Assembly: GCA_965649265.1 (NCBI GenBank)
Contig: CBFGKC010000002.1
Coordinates: 107,100-171,099 of the forward strand
From: a candidate division WOR-3 bacterium
GTDB lineage: Bacteria; Hydrothermota; Tepidihabitantia; B3-TA06
DNA: 64,000 bases
Direction: 5' to 3'
Shown here: positions 231 through 45,630 of the stretch, one piece after another
How positions within the stretch are numbered: the first letter of the stretch is position 1
Layout of the letters: each line of letters begins with the position of its first letter
Notes under the pieces: generated by a model
Seen by the model: the letters and a program-made list of their open reading frames with translations, nothing else
What the model was told of the DNA's origin: nothing
Database searches by the model: none
Program-made: the position numbers and the translations under genes

Positions 231-277
231 TGAGGAGGGCGAGGGCTGAGGAGGGCTGAGGGGGGCTGAGGGGGGCT
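231..277. repeat. (TGAGGRGGGC)n tandem repeat abutting the ALDH stop codon
   Basis: 4-5 copies of a 10-bp unit read directly; the same family occurs at 17629 and 34983. Confidence 0.85.
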
Positions 278-1655
278 AGGATATGTCGAAGAGATAGAGC
301 TTCTCCTCGGTCATCTCGCGCACGGCGAAGGAGGGCCCCTCCCTGCCGAGACCTGAGTCCTTCATTCCGCCGTAAGGCATGAGGTCCGCGCGGAAAGTCG
401 GCAGCTCGTTAATGAGCACCCCGCCCGCATCGATGGAGTCGGCGGCGCGGAAGGCTTTCTTGATGTCGTTCGTGAAACAAGCCGCCTGCAGGCCGTAATC
501 GGTGGCGTTCACGCGCGCGATTGCATCCTCGAGATCGTCCACGGGGTTGACGACCACCAGCGGTGCAAACGCCTCTTCCCTTATCAATTTCTGATCCTCC
601 GAGACATTTACGAGAATCCAGGGCCCCAGGACATTGCCTTCGCGTTGACCTTCGAGGATGACCTGCGCTCCCGATTTTCTTGCCTCGGCAATCCACGAGA
701 GGGCGCGGTCTACTTCTTTGGATTCGATCATGGGACCGAGGTCAGTGTCCTCGTTCATCGGGTCGCCTGTCTTGATTTTTGAGACCTCGGAGAGAAGAGT
801 ATCGAGGAACTCTTTATAGATTTTTTTCTCGACGTAGACCCTCTGCGTGGAGATGCACACCTGACCGGCAAGCGTGTAGCCTCCTGTCTTGATCTTCTTC
901 GCGGCTTTTTTGACGTCGGCGTCCGAAAGAAGTATGACGGCGGAGTTGGAACCCAGTTCGAACGCGAGCTTCTTGATACCTGCGGATTTCGAGATCTCGT
1001 GGCCGACCGCCCTGGAGCCGGTGAACGTGATCATTCTCGGGATGGACGAGGCCGTGAGGGTCTTACCGACGGAGGAACCTGGTCCGATGACAACCTGCAG
1101 CGCCCCTGGAGGGATTCCTGATTCGATGAGCGTCTCGGCAAGCTTTATTCCGGAGAAGGGCGTCGCGGACGCGGGCTTGAAGATAACCGGGCACCCGGCT
1201 GCAATGGCCGGCCCGAGCTTGTGGGCGGCCAGGTTCAGGGGAAAGTTGAAAGGCGTAATCGCCGCTACCACCCCGCACGGCACGCGGCGGAAGAACCCGC
1301 GCTTCCGGGGATGCCCTGCGGCGGAGAAGGGAACCTCCCGGCCTGCGAGCGTCAAGGCCTCGGCTGCGGAGAGTCTGAGGGTACTTACGCATCGCGAGAC
1401 CTCAGTCCTCGCTTCCCTTACGGTCTTGCCGACTTCAAGGACGAGGGTGCGCGCGAAATCCTCGGACTGGCCCGAGATCGTCTCTGCCGCCCTCGTGAGG
1501 ATTCCGGCCCTTTGCTCCTGGCTCATCTCCCGCATCGAGGGGAAGGAGTCGCGGGCCTGCTCGAGTTTACGCGCGGCGGAGGATTCAGTATCCTCCTCTA
1601 TTTCACCGACGAGGGACGAGTCGTAGGGATTCGTAACCTTCAACTTTCGAGTCAA
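276..1655 (-). CDS. NAD(P)-dependent aldehyde dehydrogenase
   Basis: Motifs ITPFNFP, FTGS, ELGSN, GQVCIS (catalytic Cys), EAFAP and PYGGMKDSG. GGAGG precedes a TTG start; promoter TTGACA-17-TATAAT at 1680-1708. Confidence 0.95.
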   Translation of the reverse strand: MTRKLKVTNPYDSSLVGEIEEDTESSAARKLEQARDSFPSMREMSQEQRAGILTRAAETISGQSEDFARTLVLEVGKTVREARTEVSRCVSTLRLSAAEALTLAGREVPFSAAGHPRKRGFFRRVPCGVVAAITPFNFPLNLAAHKLGPAIAAGCPVIFKPASATPFSGIKLAETLIESGIPPGALQVVIGPGSSVGKTLTASSIPRMITFTGSRAVGHEISKSAGIKKLAFELGSNSAVILLSDADVKKAAKKIKTGGYTLAGQVCISTQRVYVEKKIYKEFLDTLLSEVSKIKTGDPMNEDTDLGPMIESKEVDRALSWIAEARKSGAQVILEGQREGNVLGPWILVNVSEDQKLIREEAFAPLVVVNPVDDLEDAIARVNATDYGLQAACFTNDIKKAFRAADSIDAGGVLINELPTFRADLMPYGGMKDSGLGREGPSFAVREMTEEKLYLFDIS

Positions 1656-2943: not shown

Positions 2944-3366
2944 TTATTTCTTCCCGTGCTTCTCTATTTCAGTCTTGAGCCACGCTGCCGCCGAATCGCC
3001 GTGCATGAGCGCCTCGATTTGCGAAGGGTCAGCCGGTTTCATCGTGTAAATCCAGCCCTTGCCGTAGGGATCGGTGTTGATGAGCGTGGGGTCGTCCTCA
3101 AGCTCGGAGTTGACCTCGGCGACCGAACCGGATATCGGTGCGTAGATCTTACCCATCCACTTGCCGGTCTCGAACGAGCCGATGACCTGATCGGCCTCTG
3201 CGTCGGAGTCGGTCTCGGGAAGCTCGATGAACGAGAGCTCACCCGCGAGCTTCTGGCTGAAATCGTTAATGCCGACACGCACGATATCGCCTTCCTTCTT
3301 TACCCACATGTGTTCCTTGTGGTAGTAAAGCTCGTCAGGAAGGTTGTAGCCTTCGACATTTGCCAT
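2944..3366 (-). CDS. gcvH: Lipoyl-carrier protein, GcvH/LbpA family
   Basis: ELYYHKEHMWV, VGINDF, lipoyl-Lys motif ETGKWMG and LINTDPYGKGW; no gcvT/gcvP nearby. Confidence 0.9.
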   Translation of the reverse strand: MANVEGYNLPDELYYHKEHMWVKKEGDIVRVGINDFSQKLAGELSFIELPETDSDAEADQVIGSFETGKWMGKIYAPISGSVAEVNSELEDDPTLINTDPYGKGWIYTMKPADPSQIEALMHGDSAAAWLKTEIEKHGKK

Positions 3367-3375
3367 CTTTCCTCC

Positions 3376-3669
3376 TTAGGTGATGATTCGTTTGAATTCC
3401 GCGACAAGCTCGGCGAGCTTGTCGTAATCAATTGTTTTTTCCTGCGCCGCATCGAGCCCGCGGGCCTCAAGGTCTTCTTTGAGATAATATACTCGGACGC
3501 CCGACTTCTCGAGGTCGGAAATCTTTGCCGCGAGCGGCTGGGGACCTCGAACGGCGAGCACCCCGTCCTGAATGAAGCAAAGGCCGTCACCGGACGCTGC
3601 AAGCTTTAATACGAGTTCCCACGAACCGCGCTCGAAGGGCGAACGTGTAACGAGATAGAGTGTACCCAT
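3376..3669 (-). CDS. dsrH: Sulfur relay protein DsrH/TusB
   Basis: SPF, FIQDGV, YYLKEDLEARG and IDY motifs; third gene of the DsrEFH triplet. Confidence 0.9.
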   Translation of the reverse strand: MGTLYLVTRSPFERGSWELVLKLAASGDGLCFIQDGVLAVRGPQPLAAKISDLEKSGVRVYYLKEDLEARGLDAAQEKTIDYDKLAELVAEFKRIIT

Positions 3670-3677
3670 AAAACCGC

Positions 3678-4034
3678 CTAAGTAAAGCTTATGACGTGAT
3701 CGACCGAGGCGATAAGGGACGCGAGCGCCCGGTCGTCAAGGGTTTCAGCCGCGATGCAGTTTTCTGGAGTGATGGAGCGAGCGTCCAGGGAGGGGGTGTG
3801 CAGGTAGAGCTTTGCGCCGAAATCGGCGAGTTGGGAATACGCTTCTGACAACTTGTGCATACCGAGAGCCTCGGGGTTCTGATTTTTCAGGGCGACGAGC
3901 ACGCCGTCATCTGCAAGCACGGCATGGGTCTCTACACCCATTCCGGCGAGCCCGATGATTGCGCGAAATCCCTCGCCTGCAGTGGCCATGCCGTAGGGCG
4001 AGGTGCGGATAAGAACTATCACTTTCTTGGCCAT
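3678..4034 (-). CDS. dsrF: Sulfur relay protein DsrF/TusC-like
   Basis: RTSPYG, EGFR, DDGV and SLDARS motifs; lies between dsrE and dsrH. Confidence 0.85.
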   Translation of the reverse strand: MAKKVIVLIRTSPYGMATAGEGFRAIIGLAGMGVETHAVLADDGVLVALKNQNPEALGMHKLSEAYSQLADFGAKLYLHTPSLDARSITPENCIAAETLDDRALASLIASVDHVISFT

Positions 4035-4035
4035 G

Positions 4036-4386
4036 CTAGAACCCGAAAGCGAGGAAGCGGTCGCACTCCCCGATGTAGTTTACTAAAACGGCCATGCCGC
4101 CGAGCTTTGCGCCCTCGACTATATCGTCCTTCTTGAGGCCACGGAAAGAAGCGCATGTTCCGCATCCCTTCACGTCCGCGCCGAGCGTTGCAAGCTCGGT
4201 CATCATCTCGGCAAGGTTGCGTTCTTGCGGCGATTTTATGTTCTTGTTGAGTGCTATGAGCCCGTCCTCATAGAGGAACAGCTTGACGCCGTTGCCCTTT
4301 GAGAGGAGCTTTTTGGCGAGGTGGTACACCGTGTCTATGTTCTGTGATGTATAGGGACCGGTGCGCAGGAGAAATCCTACAGTCAT
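4036..4386 (-). CDS. dsrE: Sulfur relay protein DsrE/TusD-like
   Basis: TGPY, FLYEDG and CGTCASFRG (active-site Cys region, here CxxC). Confidence 0.88.
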   Translation of the reverse strand: MTVGFLLRTGPYTSQNIDTVYHLAKKLLSKGNGVKLFLYEDGLIALNKNIKSPQERNLAEMMTELATLGADVKGCGTCASFRGLKKDDIVEGAKLGGMAVLVNYIGECDRFLAFGF

Positions 4387-4392
4387 AGGGTT

Positions 4393-4806
4393 CTAGCCGA
4401 TGAAGAGGCTTACCGACGCCTCGGCTGCCATCTTGAGGAACTGGGCCGCGCCGACCACCTTGATGCCGTCAAGAAGGTCCTCTTTCTTGAAACCGAAGAG
4501 CTGGAGCGTGGTGTTGCAGGCGTAGAGATTGACGCCCGAATCCTGGGCCATCTTGAGGAGCTCAGGCCAGGTGGCGATGCCTAATTTCTTCATTTTGGAG
4601 TTCATCATGCCGGTGCCGACGCTCATGGCGCCGCGGAGTTTGGGTGAAAAACCCTTCTTGAGGGCGTTGAGTCCCCAGAAGGTAAAAAACATGTGCGCCT
4701 CCATGCCCGATGCCGCAGCCGTCGTTGCCAGCATCATGGCCGCCATCGTTTTTTCGAGTACCTGCTCGCTAACCACCATTGCCAGGGAATTCTTCTTTTC
4801 AAGCAT
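4393..4806 (-). CDS. DsrE2/DrsE_2-family sulfur carrier (peroxiredoxin-like)
   Basis: MFFTFWGL, LYACNTT, GFKKEDL, VGAAQFL and SLFI motifs. Confidence 0.88.
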   Translation of the reverse strand: MLEKKNSLAMVVSEQVLEKTMAAMMLATTAAASGMEAHMFFTFWGLNALKKGFSPKLRGAMSVGTGMMNSKMKKLGIATWPELLKMAQDSGVNLYACNTTLQLFGFKKEDLLDGIKVVGAAQFLKMAAEASVSLFIG

Positions 4807-4926
4807 TTTTGCTCCTTTGGAGGATTAAAAGTCCTCCTTTTTTAACGAAGCCACGCCGCCCGGTTTCTCTGTAACCCTTTGTTTCGGGTGTAACGGGCGT
4901 TACGGGACCCGGGGGTGTGTTACGGG

Positions 4927-5160
4927 TTACGCCTTGCGGCGGATGTAAAACTTGAGGGTCGAACCCTCTTCTTCCATGCCCAGAAACTCGTTTCCCGTCT
5001 GCTCGCACCAGGCCGGAACGTCCTCGCGGGCACCCTCGTCGTCGGCGAGCAACTCGAGAACCTGTCCTACCTGGACTTCCTTTATCTTCTGGGCCGTCTT
5101 AAGGATAGGCATGGGACAAAGAAGCCCACGCGCGTCAAATGATAAGTCTTTTTCCATCAT
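4927..5160 (-). CDS. tusA: Sulfurtransferase TusA/SirA
   Basis: DARGLLCPMP (CPxP) and EDVPAWC; AAGGAG precedes ATG 5160/5157. Confidence 0.93.
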   Translation of the reverse strand: MMEKDLSFDARGLLCPMPILKTAQKIKEVQVGQVLELLADDEGAREDVPAWCEQTGNEFLGMEEEGSTLKFYIRRKA

Positions 5161-5178
5161 CTTCTCCTTAAATATCAC

Positions 5179-5535
5179 TTAAACCGGTTCTTTGAGAGGG
5201 AGGTACTCGTCGAGCGCCTCGACGAGATAACCTATGTACTCGAAGACCGGTCCACCACCCATCGCCAGAGCCACGTTCGCGGCATCAAGAATCTCTTCTC
5301 GCGTACATCCGACGCTTACGCATATCTGTGTGTGGAGCCTTATGCACGGCCTGCAGTGCTGGACGAGAACGATTGCAAGCTGCATGAGTTCCTTGTACTT
5401 TGTGGGAATGGCGCTTTCTTCCTTGGTTTTGCGCCAGAACTGCATGAAGGCGCCGGCGGCCTCTCCCCCCTCCCTGCGAAAACGCGCCTGCGCTTTTGAT
5501 ATTGCCTTCTGTTCGGATTCGTTATTAGAGTTCAT
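5179..5535 (-). CDS. Carboxymuconolactone decarboxylase/AhpD-like protein
   Basis: KYKEL, CRPCIRLH (CxxC), TREEI and MGGGP motifs. Confidence 0.88.
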   Translation of the reverse strand: MNSNNESEQKAISKAQARFRREGGEAAGAFMQFWRKTKEESAIPTKYKELMQLAIVLVQHCRPCIRLHTQICVSVGCTREEILDAANVALAMGGGPVFEYIGYLVEALDEYLPLKEPV

Positions 5536-5659
5536 TTACAACTCTCGTGAATTAGTGGAATATCGACTAAAACAGATACTTTTTTCCCCTTTGCAGGAAC
5601 CCCGAAAAGAAAACGGGGTCTCCGAGGGGATACTTTGTATTCCCTTGGGGTATAAGAGG

Positions 5660-5812
5660 TTACGATTGCTGCTCCTCTTCCGCTTTGGCGCGTAGGATTG
5701 AACGCAGGTTATCGAGAGCGGATAAAAGCTCTTCATCAAAAATATCGGACGCAATCTTGGAGGCGTCGTACAGCTTGCCGTCCACCTGAAAGCTCATCAT
5801 CTCCGGTATCAT
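5660..5812 (-). CDS. Small acidic hypothetical protein (~50 aa)
   Basis: Lies within the operon; AAGGGG upstream of ATG 5812; helical acidic sequence. Confidence 0.5.
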   Translation of the reverse strand: MIPEMMSFQVDGKLYDASKIASDIFDEELLSALDNLRSILRAKAEEEQQS

Positions 5813-5879
5813 CTGTGCGCCCCTTATCCCGTTGCTTACCAGGAATATGGCATGTCCGAGAGGGATCTCCTCGTCGAAC

Positions 5880-6785
5880 TCAGCCTGCGGCAGGTTTTTC
5901 ACTTGTAACTCCGATCCTTGCAAGGATCTCTTTTGGTTTAATGCGGTTTATGGAAAACCCCAGCTCGTCGGGCGTGTAGCCGAGCGCGAGTCCCAAAAGC
6001 TGAGGGTAGTAGATAGCGGGCAGGTTGAACTCCTGCTCCATCTCTTTTTCGATTTTTTTCTGGTTCTGCTCATACATCACGTTGCAGAAAGGGCATATGA
6101 GTGCCATCGCCTCGGAACCGGTAGATTTGATGCTTGCGAGCTTGCGGCCAGCCATCGCGTATGCTATATCGACGCGAATTCCGAGTATTCCTCCTCCGCA
6201 GCAAAGCTCGCGCTCGGAGTAAGGAATACTTTTTGCACCCGTCGCGTTAATTAAATCATCGTAGACGTGCGGGTTCTCGGGGTCATCGAAATTCTCGAAA
6301 GCCTCCGAAGGCTTGAAGAAATGGCATCCGGGATGGGCGGCAATGGCAGTGGACTCGAGGTCGACCTTTATTTCACTCTTGATGCGGTCAATACCCACAT
6401 CCTCGTAAAGCACGCGAGCAAAATGACGTACGTTGACGGTTCCCTTGTATTCCAACCCCTCGGCCTTGAGAATTTTGTTGACTTCCGCGAGCTTTTCAGG
6501 CGAGTGCTTGAGCTGGTGATTGGCCTCGACTTGTGTGCCCGTGCAGGCGGTACAGAGGGTGGTCATATCAAGACCTTCTTTCTCCGCGAGCGCGAGATTG
6601 CGTGCGGCCATAACGAGTGCGGACTGCTGGCTGACGGACTTTATGGGAAATCCGCAGCAGGTAAAAGAGGGAATATCGACCAGCTCGATGCCGAAGTGTT
6701 TGGCAACGACTCGCGCGGAAATCTCGTAGTTCTGGGCACGTACAGGTACGGTACAGCCGAGATAGAGCGCCAGTTTTTTAGCCAT
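5880..6785 (-). CDS. hdrB: Heterodisulfide reductase subunit B
   Basis: Two intact CCG domains: YLGC..TCCG..CTAC and HPGC..LCCG..CPFC. Start MAKK at 6785 overlaps the hdrC stop. Confidence 0.95.
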   Translation of the reverse strand: MAKKLALYLGCTVPVRAQNYEISARVVAKHFGIELVDIPSFTCCGFPIKSVSQQSALVMAARNLALAEKEGLDMTTLCTACTGTQVEANHQLKHSPEKLAEVNKILKAEGLEYKGTVNVRHFARVLYEDVGIDRIKSEIKVDLESTAIAAHPGCHFFKPSEAFENFDDPENPHVYDDLINATGAKSIPYSERELCCGGGILGIRVDIAYAMAGRKLASIKSTGSEAMALICPFCNVMYEQNQKKIEKEMEQEFNLPAIYYPQLLGLALGYTPDELGFSINRIKPKEILARIGVTSEKPAAG

Positions 6786-7386
6786 TTGCACCCTCCTTCT
6801 CCTTTTTCCCATCGCTCGAGTATTCGTGGAGCCCAGTTGCCTGAAAGATTGCCTTGATTGGCTCGGGCGATTCTGTAAGTTCCGGAAGTCCAGCCTTTAC
6901 ACGTTTTTTGTTGGTGAAATCGTCGGCCTCGTAAAGCCTTCCGTGTCCCTGAATCAGGTCTATCTGGGCGGTGAACGCGGGATGAATGTAGCCGTTCTTT
7001 ACGGCGAGATTTTTTAAAGCGTTCATCATCTCCGTGATGCGGACGTCCTGCGGGCAGCGCTCGTGGCAGGAATAGCAGGTTGAGCAAAGCCATACAAACT
7101 CGGACTTGAGCACCTGCTCTTTCATGCCCAGGAGCGCCATGTGTATTATTCTGCGCGGGTTAAAGCTGTCGTCAGTTGCGCGAACAGGGCACGAGGCCGT
7201 GCAGGTTCCGCACGCAAAACAGCGGGTAATGAACTCGCCCGAGGGCTCGGCTAAAATCTCGTACTTGAAATTCGGATCAAGCTCTTCAAAACGCACGACC
7301 TTAGGTTCTTCGGACTTTGTGACCTCGTCAATCGCTTGCTCGGTTTGATTGGATTGTTCCGAATTGTCTTTTACTTCTTCTTCCAA
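6778..7386 (-). CDS. hdrC: Heterodisulfide reductase subunit C
   Basis: CFACGTCTASCP and WLCSTCYSCHERCP; GGAGG then TTG start at 7386. Confidence 0.93.
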   Translation of the reverse strand: MEEEVKDNSEQSNQTEQAIDEVTKSEEPKVVRFEELDPNFKYEILAEPSGEFITRCFACGTCTASCPVRATDDSFNPRRIIHMALLGMKEQVLKSEFVWLCSTCYSCHERCPQDVRITEMMNALKNLAVKNGYIHPAFTAQIDLIQGHGRLYEADDFTNKKRVKAGLPELTESPEPIKAIFQATGLHEYSSDGKKEKEGANG

Positions 7387-7477
7387 AATTCCTCCAGCAC
7401 GGCAATACGCTTGCGACAATTGCCGCAATTACACCGCATACGCAACCAGGATCTAACCGACAAAGACCTTTTTCTCA

Positions 7478-8356
7478 TCAAAACTCCTGTGGCAGTCCCT
7501 CGAGCTCGGCGAGCGCGAATACTGGACCGTCCTTGCAAACGTAGTAGGGACCAATATTACAGCGGCCGCACTTGCCTATACCGCATTTCATCCGCCGCTC
7601 GAGCGAGGTGTAAATCCGGTCATTGCCGAAGCCGAGTTTCGTGACCACAGGCAGGGTGTAACGGATCATGGCTGGCGGCCCGCACATAATAAGCAGCGCG
7701 TTATCGGGACTTGGAGCAATCTTTTCCGTAACGGTCGGTACAAATCCAACGAGGCCTTCCCAGCCGTTCGCTTCGGTATCGACAGTAAGATAAATTGAAA
7801 AATCGTCGCGTTTTCCACATTCCTCGAGTTCGGATTTGTATAAAAGCATACCGGGCGTGCGCGCGCCGTAGATTACGGTAACATCCTTGAAATCGGACCG
7901 GTGCCCGTCTATAAGGTACCTTATTACTGATCTTAGGGTCGTAAACGCGAAGCCGCCGGAAACGATTACAAGATTGGAACCCTTGAAATTTTCTAAAGGA
8001 TACCAGTTTCCGAGTGGCCCCCGCATGCCTATCGGGTCGCCCACTTCGAGCTGATGCATCGTATTAGTTACCAACCCTGCGCGATTTACAGTGAAGCGCA
8101 CATAGTCTTGCTCGGTCGGCGAGGAGGCGATGCCGAAGGGCGATTCGCCTTTGCCGAGTACCGACACCTCGCAAAACTGGCCGGGCAGGAAGCTGAAAGC
8201 CTCCTTATCCTCCTTATTGACGAACTCAAGGTCAAACGTCTTGAGCATTCCGTCTTCGGACTCTACGCGTATGTCGCGTATTTTCATAGGCATAGGAAGA
8301 TAGGGGTTTTCTCCCTTATAGTATAACTTCTCGCCCAGGGCACTAGATTTCTCCAT
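7478..8356 (-). CDS. FAD/NAD(P)-binding 2Fe-2S oxidoreductase (FlxA/AsrB/hydrogenase-gamma type)
   Basis: FLPGQF, RGPLGN, YGART, CGPPAM and SLERRMKCGIGKCGRC..VCKDGPVF. Confidence 0.92.
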   Translation of the reverse strand: MEKSSALGEKLYYKGENPYLPMPMKIRDIRVESEDGMLKTFDLEFVNKEDKEAFSFLPGQFCEVSVLGKGESPFGIASSPTEQDYVRFTVNRAGLVTNTMHQLEVGDPIGMRGPLGNWYPLENFKGSNLVIVSGGFAFTTLRSVIRYLIDGHRSDFKDVTVIYGARTPGMLLYKSELEECGKRDDFSIYLTVDTEANGWEGLVGFVPTVTEKIAPSPDNALLIMCGPPAMIRYTLPVVTKLGFGNDRIYTSLERRMKCGIGKCGRCNIGPYYVCKDGPVFALAELEGLPQEF

Positions 8357-8364
8357 TAGCCGAT

Positions 8365-8392
8365 ATTATAGGAAGATATACGTCAATGTCAA
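8365..8392 (-). promoter_or_regulatory. Sigma70-type promoter of the flxA-hdr-sulfur relay operon (near-leaderless)
   Basis: TTGACA-16-TATAAT ending 8 nt before ATG 8356; no SD. Confidence 0.8.
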
Positions 8393-9396: not shown

Positions 9397-9948
9397 TTAG
9401 GTCGGCCCGCCCCCCTCACGGGCAGGCCGACGTTGCATCTCCGATGTCGCTTTCGCGTCAGAACGATTCGAATATGAGTCTGTAAGGGATTCCCTGGGAC
9501 CGGAGAAGGGATATTCTTCGATGGTCCTAGATAGATTTCTGCGTACGGGGTTCGCCCAGATGTATCGTGCTACTTTTTCGATGTCTTCATCCTTCCTTAA
9601 GACATGGTCATAATAACCCCTCTGCCAAAGAGACCTTCTGTATACCTTTCTGAATCGATATGATGAGATTTGCTTGAAGGACTTCATAGTTTTGACTAAA
9701 TCACTCTTTTCCTCGCCTGCAAGGAGAAGATGAAGATGATCGGACATGAAGCAGTAAGCCAAAATGCGGAATTGCTCTCTTGAGCAAACCGGGAATAAGG
9801 ATTCTAAGACCATTTTAACCACTCGCCCATTTCTGAAAATCGGAGAGTCGTTATACGTACAGATAGTTATGGAATAAGCGTATTGACCTTTGTAGTAGAA
9901 GCAGCGAAGTCGAGAAGTTGGTTTTCGTTTAGGGAGTTCCTGTTCCAT
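9397..9948 (-). CDS. REP-associated tyrosine transposase (RAYT, IS200-like HUH/Y1)
   Basis: YSITICT, AYCFMSDHLH (HUH), LWQRGYYDH, YIWANP (catalytic Tyr) and YPFS. Confidence 0.93.
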   Translation of the reverse strand: MEQELPKRKPTSRLRCFYYKGQYAYSITICTYNDSPIFRNGRVVKMVLESLFPVCSREQFRILAYCFMSDHLHLLLAGEEKSDLVKTMKSFKQISSYRFRKVYRRSLWQRGYYDHVLRKDEDIEKVARYIWANPVRRNLSRTIEEYPFSGPRESLTDSYSNRSDAKATSEMQRRPAREGGGPT

Positions 9949-19066: not shown

Positions 19067-20467
19067 CTACCACGTGCCAGTGGTCAGATACTCATGCATG
19101 GAGCGGGCGGCCTTGCGTCCTGCGCCCATGGCAAGAATCACGGTCGCGGCACCCGTCACGATGTCGCCGCCGGCCCACACAGCCTTCTTGGTGGTCTTGC
19201 CGGTCTCTGTATCGGCAACGATGTAGCCCCACTTGTTGGTCTCTAGCCCGGGAGTGGTGCCGGGAACCAGCGGGTTCGCGCCGTTGCCTATCGCGACCAC
19301 GACGGTATCCACGTCCATCTTGTACTCGGAACCTTCCACGGGGACGGGACGACGCCGGCCGGATGCGTCGGGCTCGCCGAGTTCCATCTTGAGAAGTTCG
19401 ACCTGACGAACGCGGCCCGCGTCATCACCGATGTAGCGGACTGGGTTGACGAGGAACTGGAAGATGACCCCCTCCTCCTCCGCGTTCTCGACCTCCTCGG
19501 CGCGCGCGGGAAGCTCCTGGCGCGAGCGGCGGTAGATTATGTAGGCTTCCTTCGCGCCCATGCGCAGCGAGGAACGCACTGCGTCCATTGCAACGTTTCC
19601 GCCGCCGACGACCACGACGCGGTCGCCCACACGGATAGGAGTGTCGTACTCTGGGAAAAGGTAGGCCTTCATGAGGTTGATGCGGGTGAGGTACTCGTTG
19701 GCCGAGTAAACGCCCGCAAGGTTCTCGCCGGGGATGTTCATGAACCAGGGAAGTCCTGCGCCGAGTCCGAGATAGACGGCCTCATATCCCTGAGAGAAGA
19801 GCTCGTCCACCGTGGCGGTGCGTCCGGCGACAAAGTCGGAGACTATCTCGACGTCAATTTTCGAGAGAAGATCGCACTCGCGCGCTACGATGGACTTGGG
19901 AAGACGGAACTCGGGGATGCCGTAAACGAGCACGCCGCCAGGCTTGTGAAGGGCCTCGAAGAGCGTGACCTTGTGGCCGAGCTTGGCGAGGTCCGCGGCG
20001 ACGGTGAGGCCTCCCGGTCCGGAGCCTACCACGGCGACCTTGTGTCCTGTGGCAGCGGCGACCGGTGGAACGCTCGTTTTACCCTGTTTAATCTCCCAGT
20101 CGGCCACGAAGCGCTCGAGGCGACCTATGGCGACGGGTTCGAATTTCTTTCCGAGCACGCAGAGCTTTTCGCACTGCTCCTCCTGGGGGCACACGCGGCC
20201 GCATACGCCGGGCAAAAGGTTGGTTTCCCGGATCTTCGCGAGCGCTTGCTCGAAATTTCCTTCCTTTACGAACTTGATGAATGCGGGAATGTCTATTTCG
20301 ACCGGGCAGCCCTGCACGCAGAAGGGTTTCTTGCATGCGATGCAGCGTTCGGCCTCGAGCTTGGCAAGTTCGGGCGTGTAGCCGAGCGCGACTTCGTTAA
20401 AATTCTTGCGGCGCTCCTCGGGCTTCTGCTTCGGGATATCCTGGCGCGGGATGTTCGCGTTAGCCAT
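19067..20467 (-). CDS. nfnB: NADH-dependent reduced ferredoxin:NADP oxidoreductase large subunit (NfnB/SudA, GltD-like)
   Basis: RCIACKKPFCVQGCP, CGRVCPQEEQC, GSGPGG, YGIPEFRLP, GGGNVAMD and GGDIVTGAATVILAMG; true start MANA at 20467. Confidence 0.92.
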   Translation of the reverse strand: MANANIPRQDIPKQKPEERRKNFNEVALGYTPELAKLEAERCIACKKPFCVQGCPVEIDIPAFIKFVKEGNFEQALAKIRETNLLPGVCGRVCPQEEQCEKLCVLGKKFEPVAIGRLERFVADWEIKQGKTSVPPVAAATGHKVAVVGSGPGGLTVAADLAKLGHKVTLFEALHKPGGVLVYGIPEFRLPKSIVARECDLLSKIDVEIVSDFVAGRTATVDELFSQGYEAVYLGLGAGLPWFMNIPGENLAGVYSANEYLTRINLMKAYLFPEYDTPIRVGDRVVVVGGGNVAMDAVRSSLRMGAKEAYIIYRRSRQELPARAEEVENAEEEGVIFQFLVNPVRYIGDDAGRVRQVELLKMELGEPDASGRRRPVPVEGSEYKMDVDTVVVAIGNGANPLVPGTTPGLETNKWGYIVADTETGKTTKKAVWAGGDIVTGAATVILAMGAGRKAARSMHEYLTTGTW

Positions 20468-21314
20468 TTTGACCTCCCAGCCCTCCAACCGCTGCCTGGT
20501 AGCGGTCGAAGGAGATTTTCTCCTCGGCCTTGAAGGCGGCCAGACGTTTGAGCATGAGATCGAAGTTGACCTGGTGTCCGTCGAATTCGGGGCCGTGCAC
20601 GCAGGCGTAACGGGTTTCTCCACCGACTTCGACACGGCAGACGCCGCACATGCCGGTCGCGTCAATCATGATGGCGTTGAGCGACACGAGTGTCTTTACC
20701 CCGTAGTGCTTTGTGAGATCGCAGACTACCTTCATCATTATGGCGGGGCCGACGGCGATTATCTCGGCAATCTTGCGGCCCTTGTCCAGATGCTCCTTGA
20801 GTTCGGTAGTGACGAACCCCTCGCGTCCGTAGGTTCCGTCGTCGGTCGTGATGTAGACCTCATCGCAGAAGGAACGGAACTCCTCCTCAAGGATGACGAT
20901 ATCCTTGGAGCGGTAGCCCAGGATCGCCACCACCTTGTTGCCGGCCTCTCTGTGCTTGCGCGCTATGGGCAGAACCTCCGCCGCGCCCACGCCGCCCGCG
21001 ACCACGAAGACGTCGCCTTCCAGTTTGTGTATGGGGGTGGGCAGTCCCAGGGGACCCACGACGTCGGCGATCTCATCGCCGGCGTTGAGTTTGCCCATCT
21101 CGAAGGTGGTCTTGCCGAGCTCCTGCACGTAGACGGTTATGGTGCCTTTCTCGGGGTCCGAATCGGCTATGGTTATGGGAATGCGTTCGCCCTTCTCGTG
21201 AAGGCGAAACACGACGAACTGGCCCGGCTCGCGCTTTTTCGCGATGAGGGGGGCTTCGATAACGAAGCGGTTAACAACAGGGTTTACTCTTTCACGCTCA
21301 ACTATACGGAACAT
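20460..21314 (-). CDS. nfnA: NfnA/SudB FAD/NAD-binding 2Fe-2S subunit
   Basis: PGQFV, GERIPITIAD, GPLG and DATGMCGVCRV..CVHGPEF; promoter TTGACA-16-TATAAT at 21340-21367. Confidence 0.93.
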   Translation of the reverse strand: MFRIVERERVNPVVNRFVIEAPLIAKKREPGQFVVFRLHEKGERIPITIADSDPEKGTITVYVQELGKTTFEMGKLNAGDEIADVVGPLGLPTPIHKLEGDVFVVAGGVGAAEVLPIARKHREAGNKVVAILGYRSKDIVILEEEFRSFCDEVYITTDDGTYGREGFVTTELKEHLDKGRKIAEIIAVGPAIMMKVVCDLTKHYGVKTLVSLNAIMIDATGMCGVCRVEVGGETRYACVHGPEFDGHQVNFDLMLKRLAAFKAEEKISFDRYQAAVGGLGGQNG

Positions 21315-25564: not shown

Positions 25565-26215
25565 GTGAACGAGAGAAAAGCTGCGGAAAAATTTGATAAA
25601 CGAACGTCTTCCGCTACCGGCGCAACAAGGGAACCTCGAAAAAAGTCTCTGCCCGATGATTCCGGCAATGCCGCGCCTCAACGCAAATGGGCTCCACTCA
25701 GCCAATGGATCATTGCGGTAGCGGTCGGAGCCGGAATAATCCTGATTGACCAGATCTCGAAATTGATCGTGGTAAAGAGTATCCCCATCTATTCGTGGAT
25801 CACGCTGATAAACCCCTTCCTCAAGTTGACATATGCTCAGAACGACGTCGGTATCTTCAGCCTCTCGTTCGGCCCAAGCTTTCTCTACATCATCCTCCCT
25901 CTATTTGCAGTGGGCTTTGTCATTTACCTTCTTCTGAGACCTCAACCCCGCTTCGTTATCGTACTTCTGGGAATGATACTGGGCGGCGGGTTAGGAAATT
26001 TCATAGACAGGGTACGCCTGGGTTACGTCGTGGACTGGATAAGCATGGGGCTGCGCAACTGGCGCTGGGCAACCTTCAACATTGCCGATTCGTCGGTTGT
26101 CGTCGCCGTTATCCTTTTGTTGATAGTGGAGCTTTTCTTCTCAAAGACAAAATCCCCATCAGTAACACCTTCAAAAGAATCCCTTGAAGACAAAGACAAC
26201 AGGTTAAAGAAGTGA
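25565..26215 (+). CDS. lspA: Lipoprotein signal peptidase II, paralogue 1
   Basis: DQISK, GGLGNFIDR, VVDWI and FNIAD. Confidence 0.92.
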   Translation: MNERKAAEKFDKRTSSATGATREPRKKSLPDDSGNAAPQRKWAPLSQWIIAVAVGAGIILIDQISKLIVVKSIPIYSWITLINPFLKLTYAQNDVGIFSLSFGPSFLYIILPLFAVGFVIYLLLRPQPRFVIVLLGMILGGGLGNFIDRVRLGYVVDWISMGLRNWRWATFNIADSSVVVAVILLLIVELFFSKTKSPSVTPSKESLEDKDNRLKK

Positions 26216-26874
26216 AAAGAAAATCATCCGACGCAACAAATGGAAAAAACGATGCCGCGATTTCGTCCGGGCGCTCCGTGACTGAAAAGGTTAAAGAAGC
26301 ACCATCCGGCAAGACACCCCCTCCCCCTCCCGATCATCAGGAAAATACACAACCGGCAAAGCGGCGCTGGGCTTCGTTGAGTCAATGGCTCATCGCCCTT
26401 GTCGCAGCCCTGGCCGTGATCGTTATTGACCAGATTTCCAAACTCATTGTCACAAATAACATCCCCTTGAACTCGACCGTCACCCTGATCCCCGACGTGC
26501 TGAACCTGACCTTTGTCCGCAACTTCCACGGGATCTTCAGCCTTAATTACGGGCCGAGGTTCATGTACATACTGCTCCCCCTTCTTGCCCTCTGCTTCGT
26601 CGTGTTTTTGATAGCAAAGCCCCAAACACGCTTCATGACCGTGCTCCTCGGGATTATCCTGGGTGGAGGCCTCGGAAACAATCTCATAGACAGACCCAGG
26701 CTCGGTTACGTCGTGGACTGGATAAGCATGGGGTTCAAAAATTGGCGCTGGGCCACTTATAACCTGGCCGATCTGTCCGTCATCATATCGGTGATACTTT
26801 TGCTGATTCTTGAGTTCTTCTTCTCAAGGGAAAAAACTTCTCACGCGCAAGAAAAAACCGAAATAACCCCATAA
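26212..26874 (+). CDS. lspA: Lipoprotein signal peptidase II, paralogue 2
   Basis: DQISK, GGLGNNLIDR, VVDWI and YNLAD. Confidence 0.9.
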   Translation: MKRKSSDATNGKNDAAISSGRSVTEKVKEAPSGKTPPPPPDHQENTQPAKRRWASLSQWLIALVAALAVIVIDQISKLIVTNNIPLNSTVTLIPDVLNLTFVRNFHGIFSLNYGPRFMYILLPLLALCFVVFLIAKPQTRFMTVLLGIILGGGLGNNLIDRPRLGYVVDWISMGFKNWRWATYNLADLSVIISVILLLILEFFFSREKTSHAQEKTEITP

Positions 26875-43940: not shown

Positions 43941-44306
43941 ATGCCGGGAAAAAAGCTTGTTATAATAGCAACACACGGGCCCGAGGACCCCGAGCGTGCA
44001 ACAATACCTTTCGTAATGGCCACCGCCGCCCAGGCTTCGGGGATAGAAGTAGTAATGGCCTTTCAGTCCAACGCGGTAATGCTTGCTAAAAAGGACTGCC
44101 TCAAGCACGTTTTTGCCGCTGGATTTCCTCCTCTGGAGGAACTCGTGAATGCTTATCTAGAAGCAGGCGGAAAAATGCTTTTGTGTGGCCCATGTATCAA
44201 CTCCCGCAAACTGGAAAAGGAGGATTTCATCCCCGGAGCCGTAATCGTAAACGCGGCCACGCTCGTTAACGAGGTCATGAACTCCCAGCAGAGCCTTAGG
44301 TATTGA
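43941..44306 (+). CDS. Stand-alone DsrE-family protein
   Basis: THGPEDPERATIPF and LLCGPCINSR; promoter TTGACC-16-TAAAAT. Confidence 0.88.
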   Translation: MPGKKLVIIATHGPEDPERATIPFVMATAAQASGIEVVMAFQSNAVMLAKKDCLKHVFAAGFPPLEELVNAYLEAGGKMLLCGPCINSRKLEKEDFIPGAVIVNAATLVNEVMNSQQSLRY

Positions 44307-44449: not shown

Positions 44450-44518
44450 ATGCGCGAAGTCAAAACGACCCGCGGAGTTACTTCGAGTCTTCCGAGAAAC
44501 AATGAAGATAATCGATAA
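44450..44518 (+). CDS. Leaderless 22-aa upstream ORF coupled to the radical SAM gene
   Basis: TTGACT-16-TAGATT-5nt-ATG; MREVKTTRGVTSSLPRNNEDNR*; TAATG overlap with the next start. Confidence 0.4.
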   Translation: MREVKTTRGVTSSLPRNNEDNR

Positions 44519-45630
44519 TGAAAGACGTTGAAGTCAAGTTATATACGACAAAGAAGATACTGAACGAGCACAAGCGCGCGGACGAGGGGTGGTTCTGGGT
44601 GCGCTACTCGGCCTATCCCTACAAGGGCTGCTCGAACGGCTGCCGCTACTGTTACGAGTGGGACGAAAAATACGCACCCATGAAGGATTACACCCTCATG
44701 GATAAGGTGGTGATGGTGAAGGAGAACGCGGTCGAACGTCTCAAGAAAGAGCTGCCGCGTAAACAGAAGGACGTGGTGTGCGTGGGTGACTGGCAGCCCG
44801 TTGAGGCGAAGTACGGGCTCTCGCGGAAGATGCTCGAGATAGTATACCAGTTGAAATTCCCCTTGATGATCATAGAACGCGCGCCGCTACTGACGAAAGA
44901 TCTGGATATCCTCAAGGATATTTCTTGTCAGACCGATGCTTATGTCGGATATTCGATTGTGGCGACAAGGGATGACGCGACAAGGCTGCACTTCGAACCC
45001 AGGGGTCCCTCGGTCAAAGGCAGGTTCAGCGCGATGAAAAGGATTGCGGAGGCGGGCGTGATGATCGGAACCCTGGCCATGCCTATCCTGCCCTATATCT
45101 TCGATTCGGACGAGGAGTTGAGGCTTCTTGTCCGGATGACCCGCGATGCGGGTGGCGGCTTTGTTCTGTTCGGAGGATTGACCCTGTGGGGAACATGCAA
45201 GAACGTCTACAACGAAGCTCTGGAATCGTATAACCCCGATCTTATCACCGCGACCGAGAAGTGGGATCGGGACAAGGCAGCCAAAACCCAGTGGGTTCGC
45301 AGGTGTCATCTCACGATTGCGGAGGAGTGCGAACGCGTGGGTATCAAGCATTTTATCAAAAGACCTGTTTCTTTTTATCCCAAAGACTTGAGGCGCAACA
45401 AGGAGATTGCCGGCATGCTGTTCGTAAAGGCAAGGGACATCCAGATGCTGGGGGAGTCCGATTACAGGTCAATGGCCTACACCAGGGTGGGCAGAACCGT
45501 TGACGGGCTCCTCCTGGATATCGGTTCGATTTACCGTGAACAGGGCAGACGAGGACTTACGGCACTCGACGGCGTCGGCGAGAAAATAGCGGACGAGATC
45601 GAGACGTTGCTCGGGAAGAGCGGACAGTGA
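44518..45630 (+). CDS. Radical SAM protein (spore photoproduct lyase-like) with C-terminal helix-hairpin-helix domain
   Basis: PYKGCSNGCRYCY, DWQPVE, FEPR and MPILP; C-terminus LDGVGEKIADEI. Confidence 0.88.
   Translation: MKDVEVKLYTTKKILNEHKRADEGWFWVRYSAYPYKGCSNGCRYCYEWDEKYAPMKDYTLMDKVVMVKENAVERLKKELPRKQKDVVCVGDWQPVEAKYGLSRKMLEIVYQLKFPLMIIERAPLLTKDLDILKDISCQTDAYVGYSIVATRDDATRLHFEPRGPSVKGRFSAMKRIAEAGVMIGTLAMPILPYIFDSDEELRLLVRMTRDAGGGFVLFGGLTLWGTCKNVYNEALESYNPDLITATEKWDRDKAAKTQWVRRCHLTIAEECERVGIKHFIKRPVSFYPKDLRRNKEIAGMLFVKARDIQMLGESDYRSMAYTRVGRTVDGLLLDIGSIYREQGRRGLTALDGVGEKIADEIETLLGKSGQ

Follow-up and report, generated by a model that had tools for sequence, protein, structure and literature searches.

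A canonical Flx-Hdr module encoded with a lipoyl carrier and a TusA/DsrE relay: a candidate sulfur reductase in WOR-3 bacteria

We analyzed a 64 kb stretch of DNA (hereafter, the window) from contig C2 of the genome of a WOR-3 bacterium (2.74 Mb; 96% complete). The window contains an operon of 11 genes that appears to join the part of an Flx-Hdr complex that reduces disulfides (FlxA, HdrC, and HdrB) to its own protein-bound dithiol/disulfide carrier and to a persulfide relay. The putative carrier is a paralog of GcvH, which we call GcvHL, and the relay consists of TusA and DsrE-family proteins. We tentatively propose that Flx-Hdr keeps GcvHL reduced and that the carrier, helped by an AhpD-like protein, releases H2S from persulfides on TusA and the DsrE proteins. 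The net effect might be that of a cytoplasmic sulfur reductase, with a lipoyl protein in the role that DsrC has in sulfate reducers; we infer both the reactions and their direction.

In searches of the full-text literature, we found no description of this cluster. For anaerobes, GcvH came up as a possible partner of HdrB just once, as a speculation in a paper on the Culexarchaeia. Hdr is widespread in bacteria that make neither coenzymes M and B (CoM/CoB) nor DsrC, and what it reduces there is an old question. As described below, a distinct clade of lipoyl proteins is tied to three kinds of enzymes with CCG domains, both in genomes from two phyla and on many metagenome contigs. The substrate thus has a concrete candidate, and few recombinant proteins would be needed to test it. 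The version with the relay might likewise account for the "previously unknown sulfur reduction mechanism" of the first cultured WOR-3 bacterium (PMC12285271). If we are correct, then this set of proteins disposes of electrons onto bound sulfur, and the carrier is the long-sought partner of Hdr.

The operon and its proteins

An earlier reading of the window from its sequence alone (the sequence-only reading) had placed eleven co-oriented genes behind one promoter, and this was borne out. The 11 open reading frames run from 8356 to 2944 on the minus strand, with intergenic gaps of -44 to +124 nucleotides, and a promoter-like site (TTGACA-16-TATAAT; 8365..8392, minus strand) matches the consensus at 12/12 positions. 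This is a pattern match only, and 7 such sites were observed in the region vs. 4.3 +/- 2.3 in shuffles. The -10 box ends 9 nucleotides ahead of the ATG of FlxA; the transcript may be leaderless, or the real start codon may be further down. We found no terminator-like site on the minus strand after the last gene (gcvHL). Matches to profiles from Pfam and NCBIfam identified 10 of the 11 genes.

The first three genes encode the Flx-Hdr proteins. FlxA (7478..8356, minus strand, like the rest of the operon; 292 amino acids) is a predicted NAD(P)H-binding flavoprotein with a C-terminal 2Fe-2S cluster (Pfam NAD_binding_1, FAD_binding_6, and DHODB_Fe-S_bind), and the cysteines for this cluster (C258, C263, C266, and C274) are conserved in 14/14 relatives. 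Its NCBIfam matches are sulfhydrogenase-gamma/AsrB-like and are all under their cutoffs; it is 53-55% identical to FlxA of the flx-hdr clusters of Desulfocapsa. HdrC (6778..7428; 216 amino acids as called, with an uncertain start) is a ferredoxin-like protein for two 4Fe-4S clusters, whose eight cysteines are conserved in 13/13 relatives (TIGR03290, 119 bits; cutoff 160). HdrB (5880..6812; 310 amino acids; TIGR03288, 272 bits) is the predicted catalytic subunit. As the sequence-only reading had it, both of its CCG domains are complete: Pfam CCG matches twice, and across 15 aligned relatives, C52, C87, C90, C163, C204, C205, C240, and C243 are invariant, with at least 90% conservation of C20 and C53.

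The next gene, u87 (5660..5923), has 87 codons and no match in Pfam or NCBIfam, and was found only in the window's WOR-3 family. It has 14 distinct homologs (49-100% identity), and its relatives have a stop codon shortly before residue 8, which puts the probable true start near 5902. After u87 comes an AhpD/CMD-family protein of 118 amino acids (5179..5535; Pfam CMD, 2e-16; PDB 5dik, "AhpD", 1.9e-15). C61 and C64 (its CxxC motif) and C72 are conserved in 17/17 relatives.

The relay begins with TusA (4927..5178; 83 amino acids; Pfam TusA, 7.7e-26), a sulfur carrier with a CPxP cysteine, in which C21 and C58 are conserved in 25/25 relatives. Then comes DsrE2 (4393..4806; 137 amino acids; Pfam DrsE_2, 3.4e-37), in which C97 is conserved in 21/21 relatives. 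(The gene is missing from the clusters at L059 and L061.) The last three relay genes encode a DsrE/TusD-like subunit (4036..4386; Pfam DsrE; 40.6 bits for the TusD model, cutoff 89), a DsrF/TusC-like subunit (3678..4034; Pfam DsrE/TusC; far under the cutoff of the TusC model), and a DsrH/TusB-like subunit (3376..3669; TIGR03011, 69.8 bits, above the cutoff of 49.2). The C75/C78 pair of DsrE is conserved in 25/25 relatives. DsrF and DsrH lack a conserved cysteine (C93 and C31 are each kept in only 9/25 relatives). The operon has three adjacent paralogs with a conserved cysteine in the DsrE/TusD subunit alone, as in DsrEFH or TusBCD.

The last gene encodes GcvHL (2944..3366; Pfam GCV_H), which is free of cysteine and very acidic. 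The sequence-only reading had pointed to ETGKWMG at the lipoyl lysine; these are residues 66-72 of the carrier, within the loop ETGKWMGK. The pattern ETGKWxGK is invariant in 16/16 relatives from two phyla, and its lysine, K69, falls in the same alignment column as the one in LbpA and GcvH. Public annotation would name this protein an ordinary GcvH, as it passes the cutoffs of NCBI's models (NF002270, 138.3 bits, cutoff 117; TIGR00527, 122.5 bits, cutoff 115.85), so its link to Hdr is invisible in routine annotation. However, it is not the only H protein in the genome. Some 8 kb from gcvHL, a little beyond the window's edge, there is a gcvT-gcvH-gcvPA operon, whereas gcvPB was located on a different contig. 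Because that operon has its own H protein, GcvHL is a spare paralog. The two proteins are 42% identical, and the corresponding loop of the operonic GcvH is EAVKAVS, which resembles the canonical E-[SA]-V-K-A; GcvHL lacks this canonical loop.

GcvHL shares with the LbpA proteins of Aquificota the loop E-[ST]-G-K-W-x-G as well as N- and C-terminal extensions. According to the LbpA study (PMC6067878), LbpA has two conserved cysteines, one near each terminus, which are absent from GcvH, and some archaeal LbpAs are exceptions. The window's GcvHL and most of its relatives have no cysteine at all, and the position of LbpA's N-terminal NGC motif is a tyrosine in GcvHL. The median charge is -17 for GcvHL vs. 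-2.5 for LbpA. We considered GcvHL as a member of LbpA and ruled this out on the cysteine criterion. In a tree of 70 GcvH-family sequences, in which LbpA was represented by 10 sequences, all from Aquificota, GcvHL proteins of WOR-3 and Caldisericota formed one group (32 rows; support 84/77). LbpA formed a separate starred clade that joined GcvHL weakly (83/49), and canonical GcvH fell outside. The carrier is thus not an ordinary H protein, as the sequence-only reading had suspected. Its other remark, that there are no gcvT/P neighbors, is weak, since a gcv operon is 4-8 kb away in the window's family. The genome encodes LipB and LipA, so GcvHL could be lipoylated; Lpd is encoded as well.

We then compared HdrB to its relatives in a tree of 38 sequences, which included sHdrB1 and sHdrB2 from five Aquificota clusters with the type I sHdr gene order. 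The window's HdrB is in a starred clade (99/97*) with HdrB from the operons of two other WOR-3 families (f30 and f34), HdrB from Caldisericota, and one HdrB from an Mvh context. The neighbors of this clade are HdrB from Methanomethylophilaceae and from Desulfobacterota with Flx-Hdr. sHdrB1 and sHdrB2 form separate clades (100/100* each) outside it, and the window's HdrB is just 27-28% identical to sHdrB2. Its closest relatives occur in reductive contexts, with Mvh or Flx. Judging from its sequence, the window's HdrB is canonical and not of the sHdr type, in agreement with the sequence-only reading. (A scan of genome contigs with HdrB returned nothing beyond close kin and generic Hdr loci.) Membership in sHdr is also ruled out by gene order: HdrC and HdrB are each encoded once, and hdrA, hyp, and etf genes are absent from the operon.

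The missing hdrA turned up elsewhere. The sequence-only reading had noted that hdrA, dsrC, and dsrAB are not in the window. Searches of the whole genome found no DsrC and no sulfite reductase (NIR_SIR) either, but hdrA is present on contigs C11 and C4. The locus on C11 (18000-37000; L077) contains nuoE/F-like genes, two hdrA, beta-propeller genes, mvhD/flxD, flxC, and flxB. It does not contain flxA or hdrBC, and the same is true in 4/4 relatives of this locus that we fetched. All other FlxB-like genes in the genome, on C14 and C17, adjoin a FlxA-like gene, and only the flxB on C11 and the flxA in the window are unpaired. Together, the window (flxA, hdrC, and hdrB) and C11 (hdrA, mvhD/flxD, flxC, and flxB) have the full gene set for FlxABCD-HdrABC, and L073 and L075 each carry all of its parts in a single operon. 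Across 10 genomes of the family, the presence of the window-type HdrB always agrees with that of the C11-type FlxB (7 have both and 3 have neither); these genomes are kin and not independent, so the concordance is supportive only. From it, we take the two loci to probably encode one complex. Given the conserved hdrA-flxDCB locus and the flxCBA-hdrACB operons of distant relatives, the window's FlxA-HdrBC probably makes up only half of a complete Flx-Hdr. We rejected a self-contained FlxA-HdrBC without HdrA as the whole story because the complementary locus on C11 is conserved. The genome also has a second and complete hdrC-hdrB-hdrA-hdrA-mvhD set on C4 (172000-191000; L078), whose HdrB groups (100/100*) with the GcvHL-linked HdrB of Caldisericota.

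There is no DsrC/TusE (PF04358) in the 96%-complete genome, while a control search of E. coli was positive. DsrAB, as NIR_SIR proteins, were not found in the genome. ComA was not found in the genome either, which makes a CoM-type heterodisulfide a less likely substrate of HdrB, although other routes to CoM exist. MnmA is present elsewhere in the genome. The window also has a stand-alone DsrE-family gene (43941..44306, plus strand; Pfam DsrE), and it is 63% identical to an additional DsrE-like gene found between tusA and dsrE2 within the L073 cluster (the clusters at L149 and L191 contain this gene, too). The stand-alone gene is possibly part of the same system. We considered whether the radical SAM gene beside it (44518-45630, plus strand) is a LipS-type lipoyl synthase, and rejected this: it belongs to the Rv2578c/PA0069 family.

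We noted several other genes in the window. A pair of the SudAB/NfnAB type (19067-21314, minus strand), 11 kb from the operon, encodes a protein of 284 amino acids with DHODB_Fe-S_bind and one of 532 amino acids with Fer4_20/Pyr_redox_2. "Sulfide dehydrogenase-like" proteins of this kind are the candidate for reduction of elemental sulfur (S0) in papers on WOR-3. An aldehyde dehydrogenase gene (276-1655, minus strand) is a repeated neighbor of the relay in three WOR-3 genomes (it is also at L058 5326-6699 and L063 2407-3957); its best NCBIfam names, lactaldehyde and sulfoacetaldehyde dehydrogenase, are both far under their cutoffs. An IS200-like Y1 transposase gene (9397-9948, minus strand) is about 1 kb upstream of the promoter-like site. 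The window also has two adjacent genes for signal peptidase II (Peptidase_A8) in tandem (25565-26874, plus strand).

The relay and the carrier in other genomes

Across 272 species genomes from WOR-3 (with simple calls of open reading frames), we found a homolog of DsrE in 39, including 11/11 from the window's family; with this query, the other 233 had none. We fetched 20 of the WOR-3 loci with DsrE homologs at length. Hdr genes are joined to the relay in 8/20 loci, from families f1, f30, and f34. Four of these, all from the window's family, repeat the whole operon. In the other four (f30 and f34), the order is flxC-flxB-flxA-hdrA (918-950 amino acids)-hdrC-hdrB-ahpD-tusA and the dsrE genes, followed by gcvHL in 3/4. 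One more locus (from genome G102) has just u87-tusA-dsrEFH-gcvHL left. The remaining 11/20 have the tusA-dsrE2-dsrEFH core alone, in unrelated surroundings, and some of those lack a match for dsrE2 or dsrH. Overall, the gene order is conserved in the window's family, in two distant WOR-3 families, and on metagenome contigs, which is what the sequence-only reading would expect. Because the distant f30 and f34 families hold Flx-Hdr and the relay together, the ancestor probably had a complete Flx-Hdr and the relay in one operon, with hdrA-flxDCB now elsewhere in the window's family.

Two of these genomes have neighbors of the relay that deserve mention. In G023 (L069 6337-12145), a TrmO-OsmC fusion is followed by DsrE2, TusA, DsrE, DsrF, DsrH, an LplA-like ligase, a DUF1858 protein, and NifU; there, the relay core is tied to lipoate ligase and Fe-S assembly, without Hdr. 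In G227, a fragment of a TauE/SafE-type transporter follows the cluster.

GcvHL itself (at least 57% identity) is in 24/272 WOR-3 genomes, and 4 of those 24 show no DsrE homolog. One genome, G224, has hdrA-hdrC-hdrB-gcvHL and no DsrE homolog that we could find; another, G108, has gcvHL-hdrA-mvhD-flxCBA. In Caldisericota, GcvHL is in 18/93 genomes, at 47-58% identity (other GcvH-family matches are at most 42% identical). We examined 14 Caldisericota loci, of which one was too short to judge. In six, gcvHL is with fumarase, an hdrA::mvhD fusion, hdrC, hdrB, an FeS protein, and a fumarate-reductase-like flavoprotein, and most of these six also have an LplA-like ligase. (The other seven are discussed below.)

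We also scanned metagenomes with an alignment of GcvHL. Among the best 80 of 442 relatives, 52 loci had at least 2.5 kb beside GcvHL. A gene with a CCG domain is within 8 kb of GcvHL in 32/52 of them, while the chance expectation is about 2%, as estimated from the 3 CCG genes in 2.7 Mb. By context, 11/52 have the window-type Hdr (9 of these with the relay), 12/52 have Hdr with a fumarate-reductase-like flavoprotein and fumarase, 7/52 have LarA and a fusion of FAD oxidase, FeS, and CCG domains, and 2/52 have another CCG context. Five of the 52 have gcv genes. The constant pairing is that of the carrier with a CCG enzyme, and the sulfur relay and the AhpD-like protein are added in one subset.

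The fumarate context recurs as fumarase - GcvHL - (LplA-like ligase) - HdrC - HdrB - HdrA::MvhD - FeS - fumarate-reductase-like flavoprotein, in Caldisericota (L116-L120 and L126) and in metagenomes (L157, L159, L162, L166-L168, L178, L184, L200, and L217). By analogy, this cluster looks like a lipoyl-linked counterpart of thiol:fumarate reductase. At L118, it adjoins genes of the methylmalonyl-CoA pathway. The window's genome has fumarate-type Hdr parts scattered on C4 and C7, and only one GcvHL. In the lactate context, GcvHL is followed by a LarA-like gene (metagenome L160, L163, L175, L179, L185, and L208, and L229 in WOR-3 genome G106); in the metagenome loci, the next gene encodes the FAD-oxidase-FeS-CCG fusion of 829 amino acids, which is D-lactate-dehydrogenase-like with an HdrD-like module. 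A third and very divergent GcvH-like gene lies between GcvHL and canonical gcvH at L113 (10179-10655) and in Caldisericota relatives. Its protein has 158 amino acids, three cysteines, and a long branch.

A possible mechanism and its alternatives

How might the operon reduce sulfur? Sulfane sulfur from S0 or polysulfide would be held as cysteine persulfides on TusA, DsrE2, and the DsrE subunit of DsrEFH. Dihydrolipoyl GcvHL would attack these persulfides, directly or via the CxxC motif of the AhpD-like protein; H2S would be freed and the lipoyl group would be left as a disulfide. HdrB would then reduce this disulfide again at its two predicted non-cubane 4Fe-4S clusters, with electrons from NAD(P)H that reach it via FlxA and HdrC. 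HdrA, FlxD, FlxC, FlxB, and the NuoEF-like module, all from the second locus, may add a link from or to ferredoxin. Dihydrolipoate is known to take up sulfur bound to rhodanese and to release sulfide; Villarejo and Westley reportedly worked on this in 1963.

Reduction of sulfur via GcvHL fits with the genome's lack of DsrC. It also fits with the position of GcvHL beside the same kinds of enzymes that are postulated to be partners of DsrC in sulfate reducers (Flx-Hdr and lactate dehydrogenase subunits; PMC6470260), and with the cultured WOR-3 isolate, which respires S0 without known genes for this (PMC12285271; PMC12542636). Further support comes from the conservation of redox and sulfur-binding residues across relatives, from the conserved gene order, from the likeness of GcvHL to LbpA, from the presence of LipB and LipA, from the complementary locus on C11, and from our failure to find a rival acceptor in the genome (DsrC, NIR_SIR, or ComA). 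The sequence-only reading had already suggested that a lipoyl disulfide may replace DsrC. That the carrier's clade recurs beside three kinds of CCG enzymes strengthens the suggestion; the reactions themselves we still infer.

There are several points against sulfur reduction via GcvHL. Genomes G101, G102, and G096 keep DsrEFH and GcvHL (with TusA shown for G102) without a window-type HdrB, so the relay and the carrier can work without this kind of Hdr. The genome has no YedE/YeeE sulfur importer (PF04143) that we could find. The GcvHL clade has moderate support, and its link to LbpA is weak. The metagenome relatives that we analyzed, as the best of those found, are biased towards kin, and 20/52 of the loci have no CCG gene within 8 kb. 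In 7/14 Caldisericota loci, GcvHL is beside gcvH-gcvPA-gcvPB in divergent orientation, and not beside Hdr. Given these loci, along with the gcv operon just 4-8 kb away in the window's family, GcvHL may yet be linked to glycine cleavage. Finally, the potential of lipoamide is low (-0.29 V; PMC6067878), so a plain lipoyl disulfide would serve poorly as the high-potential acceptor if a full Flx-Hdr bifurcates electrons from NADH. This leaves two options: there is no bifurcation, or the true substrate is a sulfur-loaded form.

As an alternative, GcvHL might be a universal "heterodisulfide" of these anaerobes' CCG enzymes (Flx-Hdr, the fumarate-linked Hdr, and the lactate dehydrogenase-CCG fusion), with TusA/DsrE and the AhpD-like protein involved just in making, repairing, or de-persulfidating the lipoyl cofactor. 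(The sequence-only reading came near to this with its idea of sulfur supply to lipoate synthesis.) In its favor, the relay is in just 11/52 of the long metagenome loci while a CCG gene is in 32/52, G224 has hdrACB-gcvHL without a detectable DsrE homolog, the TusA-DsrEFH core of G023 directly precedes an LplA-like ligase and NifU, L065 has a cysteine desulfurase close by, and the window's genome has one GcvHL along with scattered fumarate-type Hdr parts. We consider this alternative unlikely, as the genome has the ordinary LipB-LipA route (to our knowledge, LipA needs no persulfide relay) and five relay genes are a large outlay for upkeep of a cofactor. Also, 233/272 WOR-3 genomes show no DsrE homolog with this query, and neither do 4 of the 24 with GcvHL. 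Most improbable of all is that the relay is Tus-like, for 2-thiouridine in tRNA or for thio-cofactors, and is beside Hdr by chance or for redox upkeep. TusA and TusBCD-like proteins are present, with TusB above its cutoff, and MnmA is elsewhere in the genome. But TusE/DsrC was not found, the TusD and TusC models are far under their cutoffs, the relay's association with Hdr, AhpD, and GcvHL holds across families, and the phylum evidently needs no DsrE for tRNA, since 233/272 genomes lack a match to this query.

Two other explanations, each of which we regard as quite improbable, change what Hdr does. The electrons might flow in the other direction, as in sHdr-LbpA: sulfane sulfur from the relay would be oxidized and electrons passed via FlxA to NAD(P)+, for instance during sulfur disproportionation. 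The cast is similar, in that sHdr systems (PMC11094781) also involve Hdr-type proteins, a lipoyl protein with a GKW loop, TusA, and DsrE-family proteins, and the TauE/SafE-type fragment in G227 could be from an anion exporter. However, HdrB is neither sHdrB1 nor sHdrB2, and its nearest relatives are in reductive contexts with Mvh or Flx. Furthermore, a single HdrC and HdrB does not match the shdrC1B1AHC2B2 or the B3-etfAB-emo order, the carrier lacks the two cysteines of LbpA, and no NIR_SIR protein was found in the genome. Alternatively, the operon might defend against thiol stress or peroxide, with the dihydrolipoyl carrier reducing the AhpD-like protein, FlxA-HdrCB acting as an NAD(P)H:lipoyl reductase, and the relay detoxifying sulfane sulfur. 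The AhpD-family CxxC is conserved (17/17), the AhpD and GcvHL genes adjoin each other in L196 and L218, an OsmC fusion is just upstream of the relay in L069, and a GcvH-like protein is a proposed electron donor of OsmC in Hyphomicrobium (preprint 10.64898/2026.10.01.755906). Yet there is no gene for a peroxiredoxin or Ohr in the operon, Lpd is already in the genome, and an Hdr with non-cubane clusters would be odd for a defense enzyme. AhpD-like genes are in the relay-type loci only (12/80) and not in the carrier's other contexts.

Reduction of sulfur by Flx-Hdr via GcvHL remains the explanation that we prefer for this operon. A broader proposal, which is possible although we are doubtful of it, is that lipoyl proteins of the GcvHL clade are the physiological substrate (a "bacterial heterodisulfide") of canonical CCG enzymes in non-methanogenic anaerobes that lack DsrC, and that the carrier with the TusA/DsrE relay is the missing S0 reductase of WOR-3. 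The CCG enzymes in question would perhaps be HdrB of Flx-Hdr and Mvh-Hdr complexes and the HdrD-like fusions on lactate and fumarate enzymes.

Comparison with known systems

The nearest described systems are sHdr-LbpA and FlxABCD-HdrABC. The cluster lacks the hallmarks of sHdr and LbpA, and it lacks the DsrC that has been proposed for Flx-Hdr. The resemblance to sHdr-LbpA (Cao et al. 2018, PMC6067878; PMC11094781) is that Hdr-type proteins with CCG domains are in a cluster with a lipoyl protein of the GcvH family and with TusA and DsrE-family proteins. The carriers are alike in their E-[ST]-G-K-W-x-G loop and terminal extensions, as compared with the LbpAs of Aquificota. According to Tanabe et al. 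2024 (PMC11094781), the sHdr gene orders are shdrC1B1AHC2B2 (type I) and shdrC1B1AHB3-etfAB-emo (type II), and the five Aquificota reference clusters have the type I order and two LbpA genes each. In contrast, our operon has a canonical HdrB, one HdrC and one HdrB, and no sHdrA or sHdrH. Its carrier is cysteine-free and strongly acidic, while LbpA has two conserved cysteines; and it has DsrEFH in place of DsrE3, plus FlxA and the AhpD-like protein. The host lineage is reported to be fermentative, unlike the sulfur-oxidizing hosts of sHdr.

FlxABCD-HdrABC of Desulfovibrio and other anaerobes was reportedly described by Ramos et al. in 2015, with DsrC proposed as its substrate. Our operon has FlxA with a canonical HdrCB, distant WOR-3 have flxCBA-hdrACB in one operon, and hdrA-flxDCB forms the second locus. 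The differences are that the window's genome lacks DsrC, that the genes are in two loci, and that the operon adds a lipoyl carrier, an AhpD-like protein, and a persulfide relay.

As in DsrEFH and in TusBCD of E. coli, DsrE-, DsrF-, and DsrH-like genes follow tusA, and only the DsrE subunit has a conserved cysteine. (DsrEFH is type I in sulfur oxidizers; type II, in the YTD cluster, is defined by type II hidden Markov models and adjacency to yedE/yeeE in PMC13293266.) However, we did not find DsrC/TusE, DsrAB, or YedE/YeeE in the window's genome, and the TusD and TusC models are under their cutoffs.

AhpD from M. tuberculosis works with a lipoyl protein. As in lipoyl-dependent AhpD and Ohr/OsmC relays, a CxxC protein of the CMD/AhpD family is encoded here with a lipoyl protein, which suggests, by analogy, thiol-disulfide exchange between the AhpD-like protein and the carrier. 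Here, there is no peroxiredoxin partner in the operon, the proposed reductant is Hdr and not Lpd, and the context is a sulfur relay.

Thiol:fumarate reductase (TfrAB) and the HdrD-type lactate dehydrogenases are CCG-domain enzymes that connect the redox reaction of an organic pair with a carrier of the thiol/disulfide kind. The window contains no such context, and the carrier's partner here is the sulfur relay; in other lineages, relatives of GcvHL do adjoin such enzymes.

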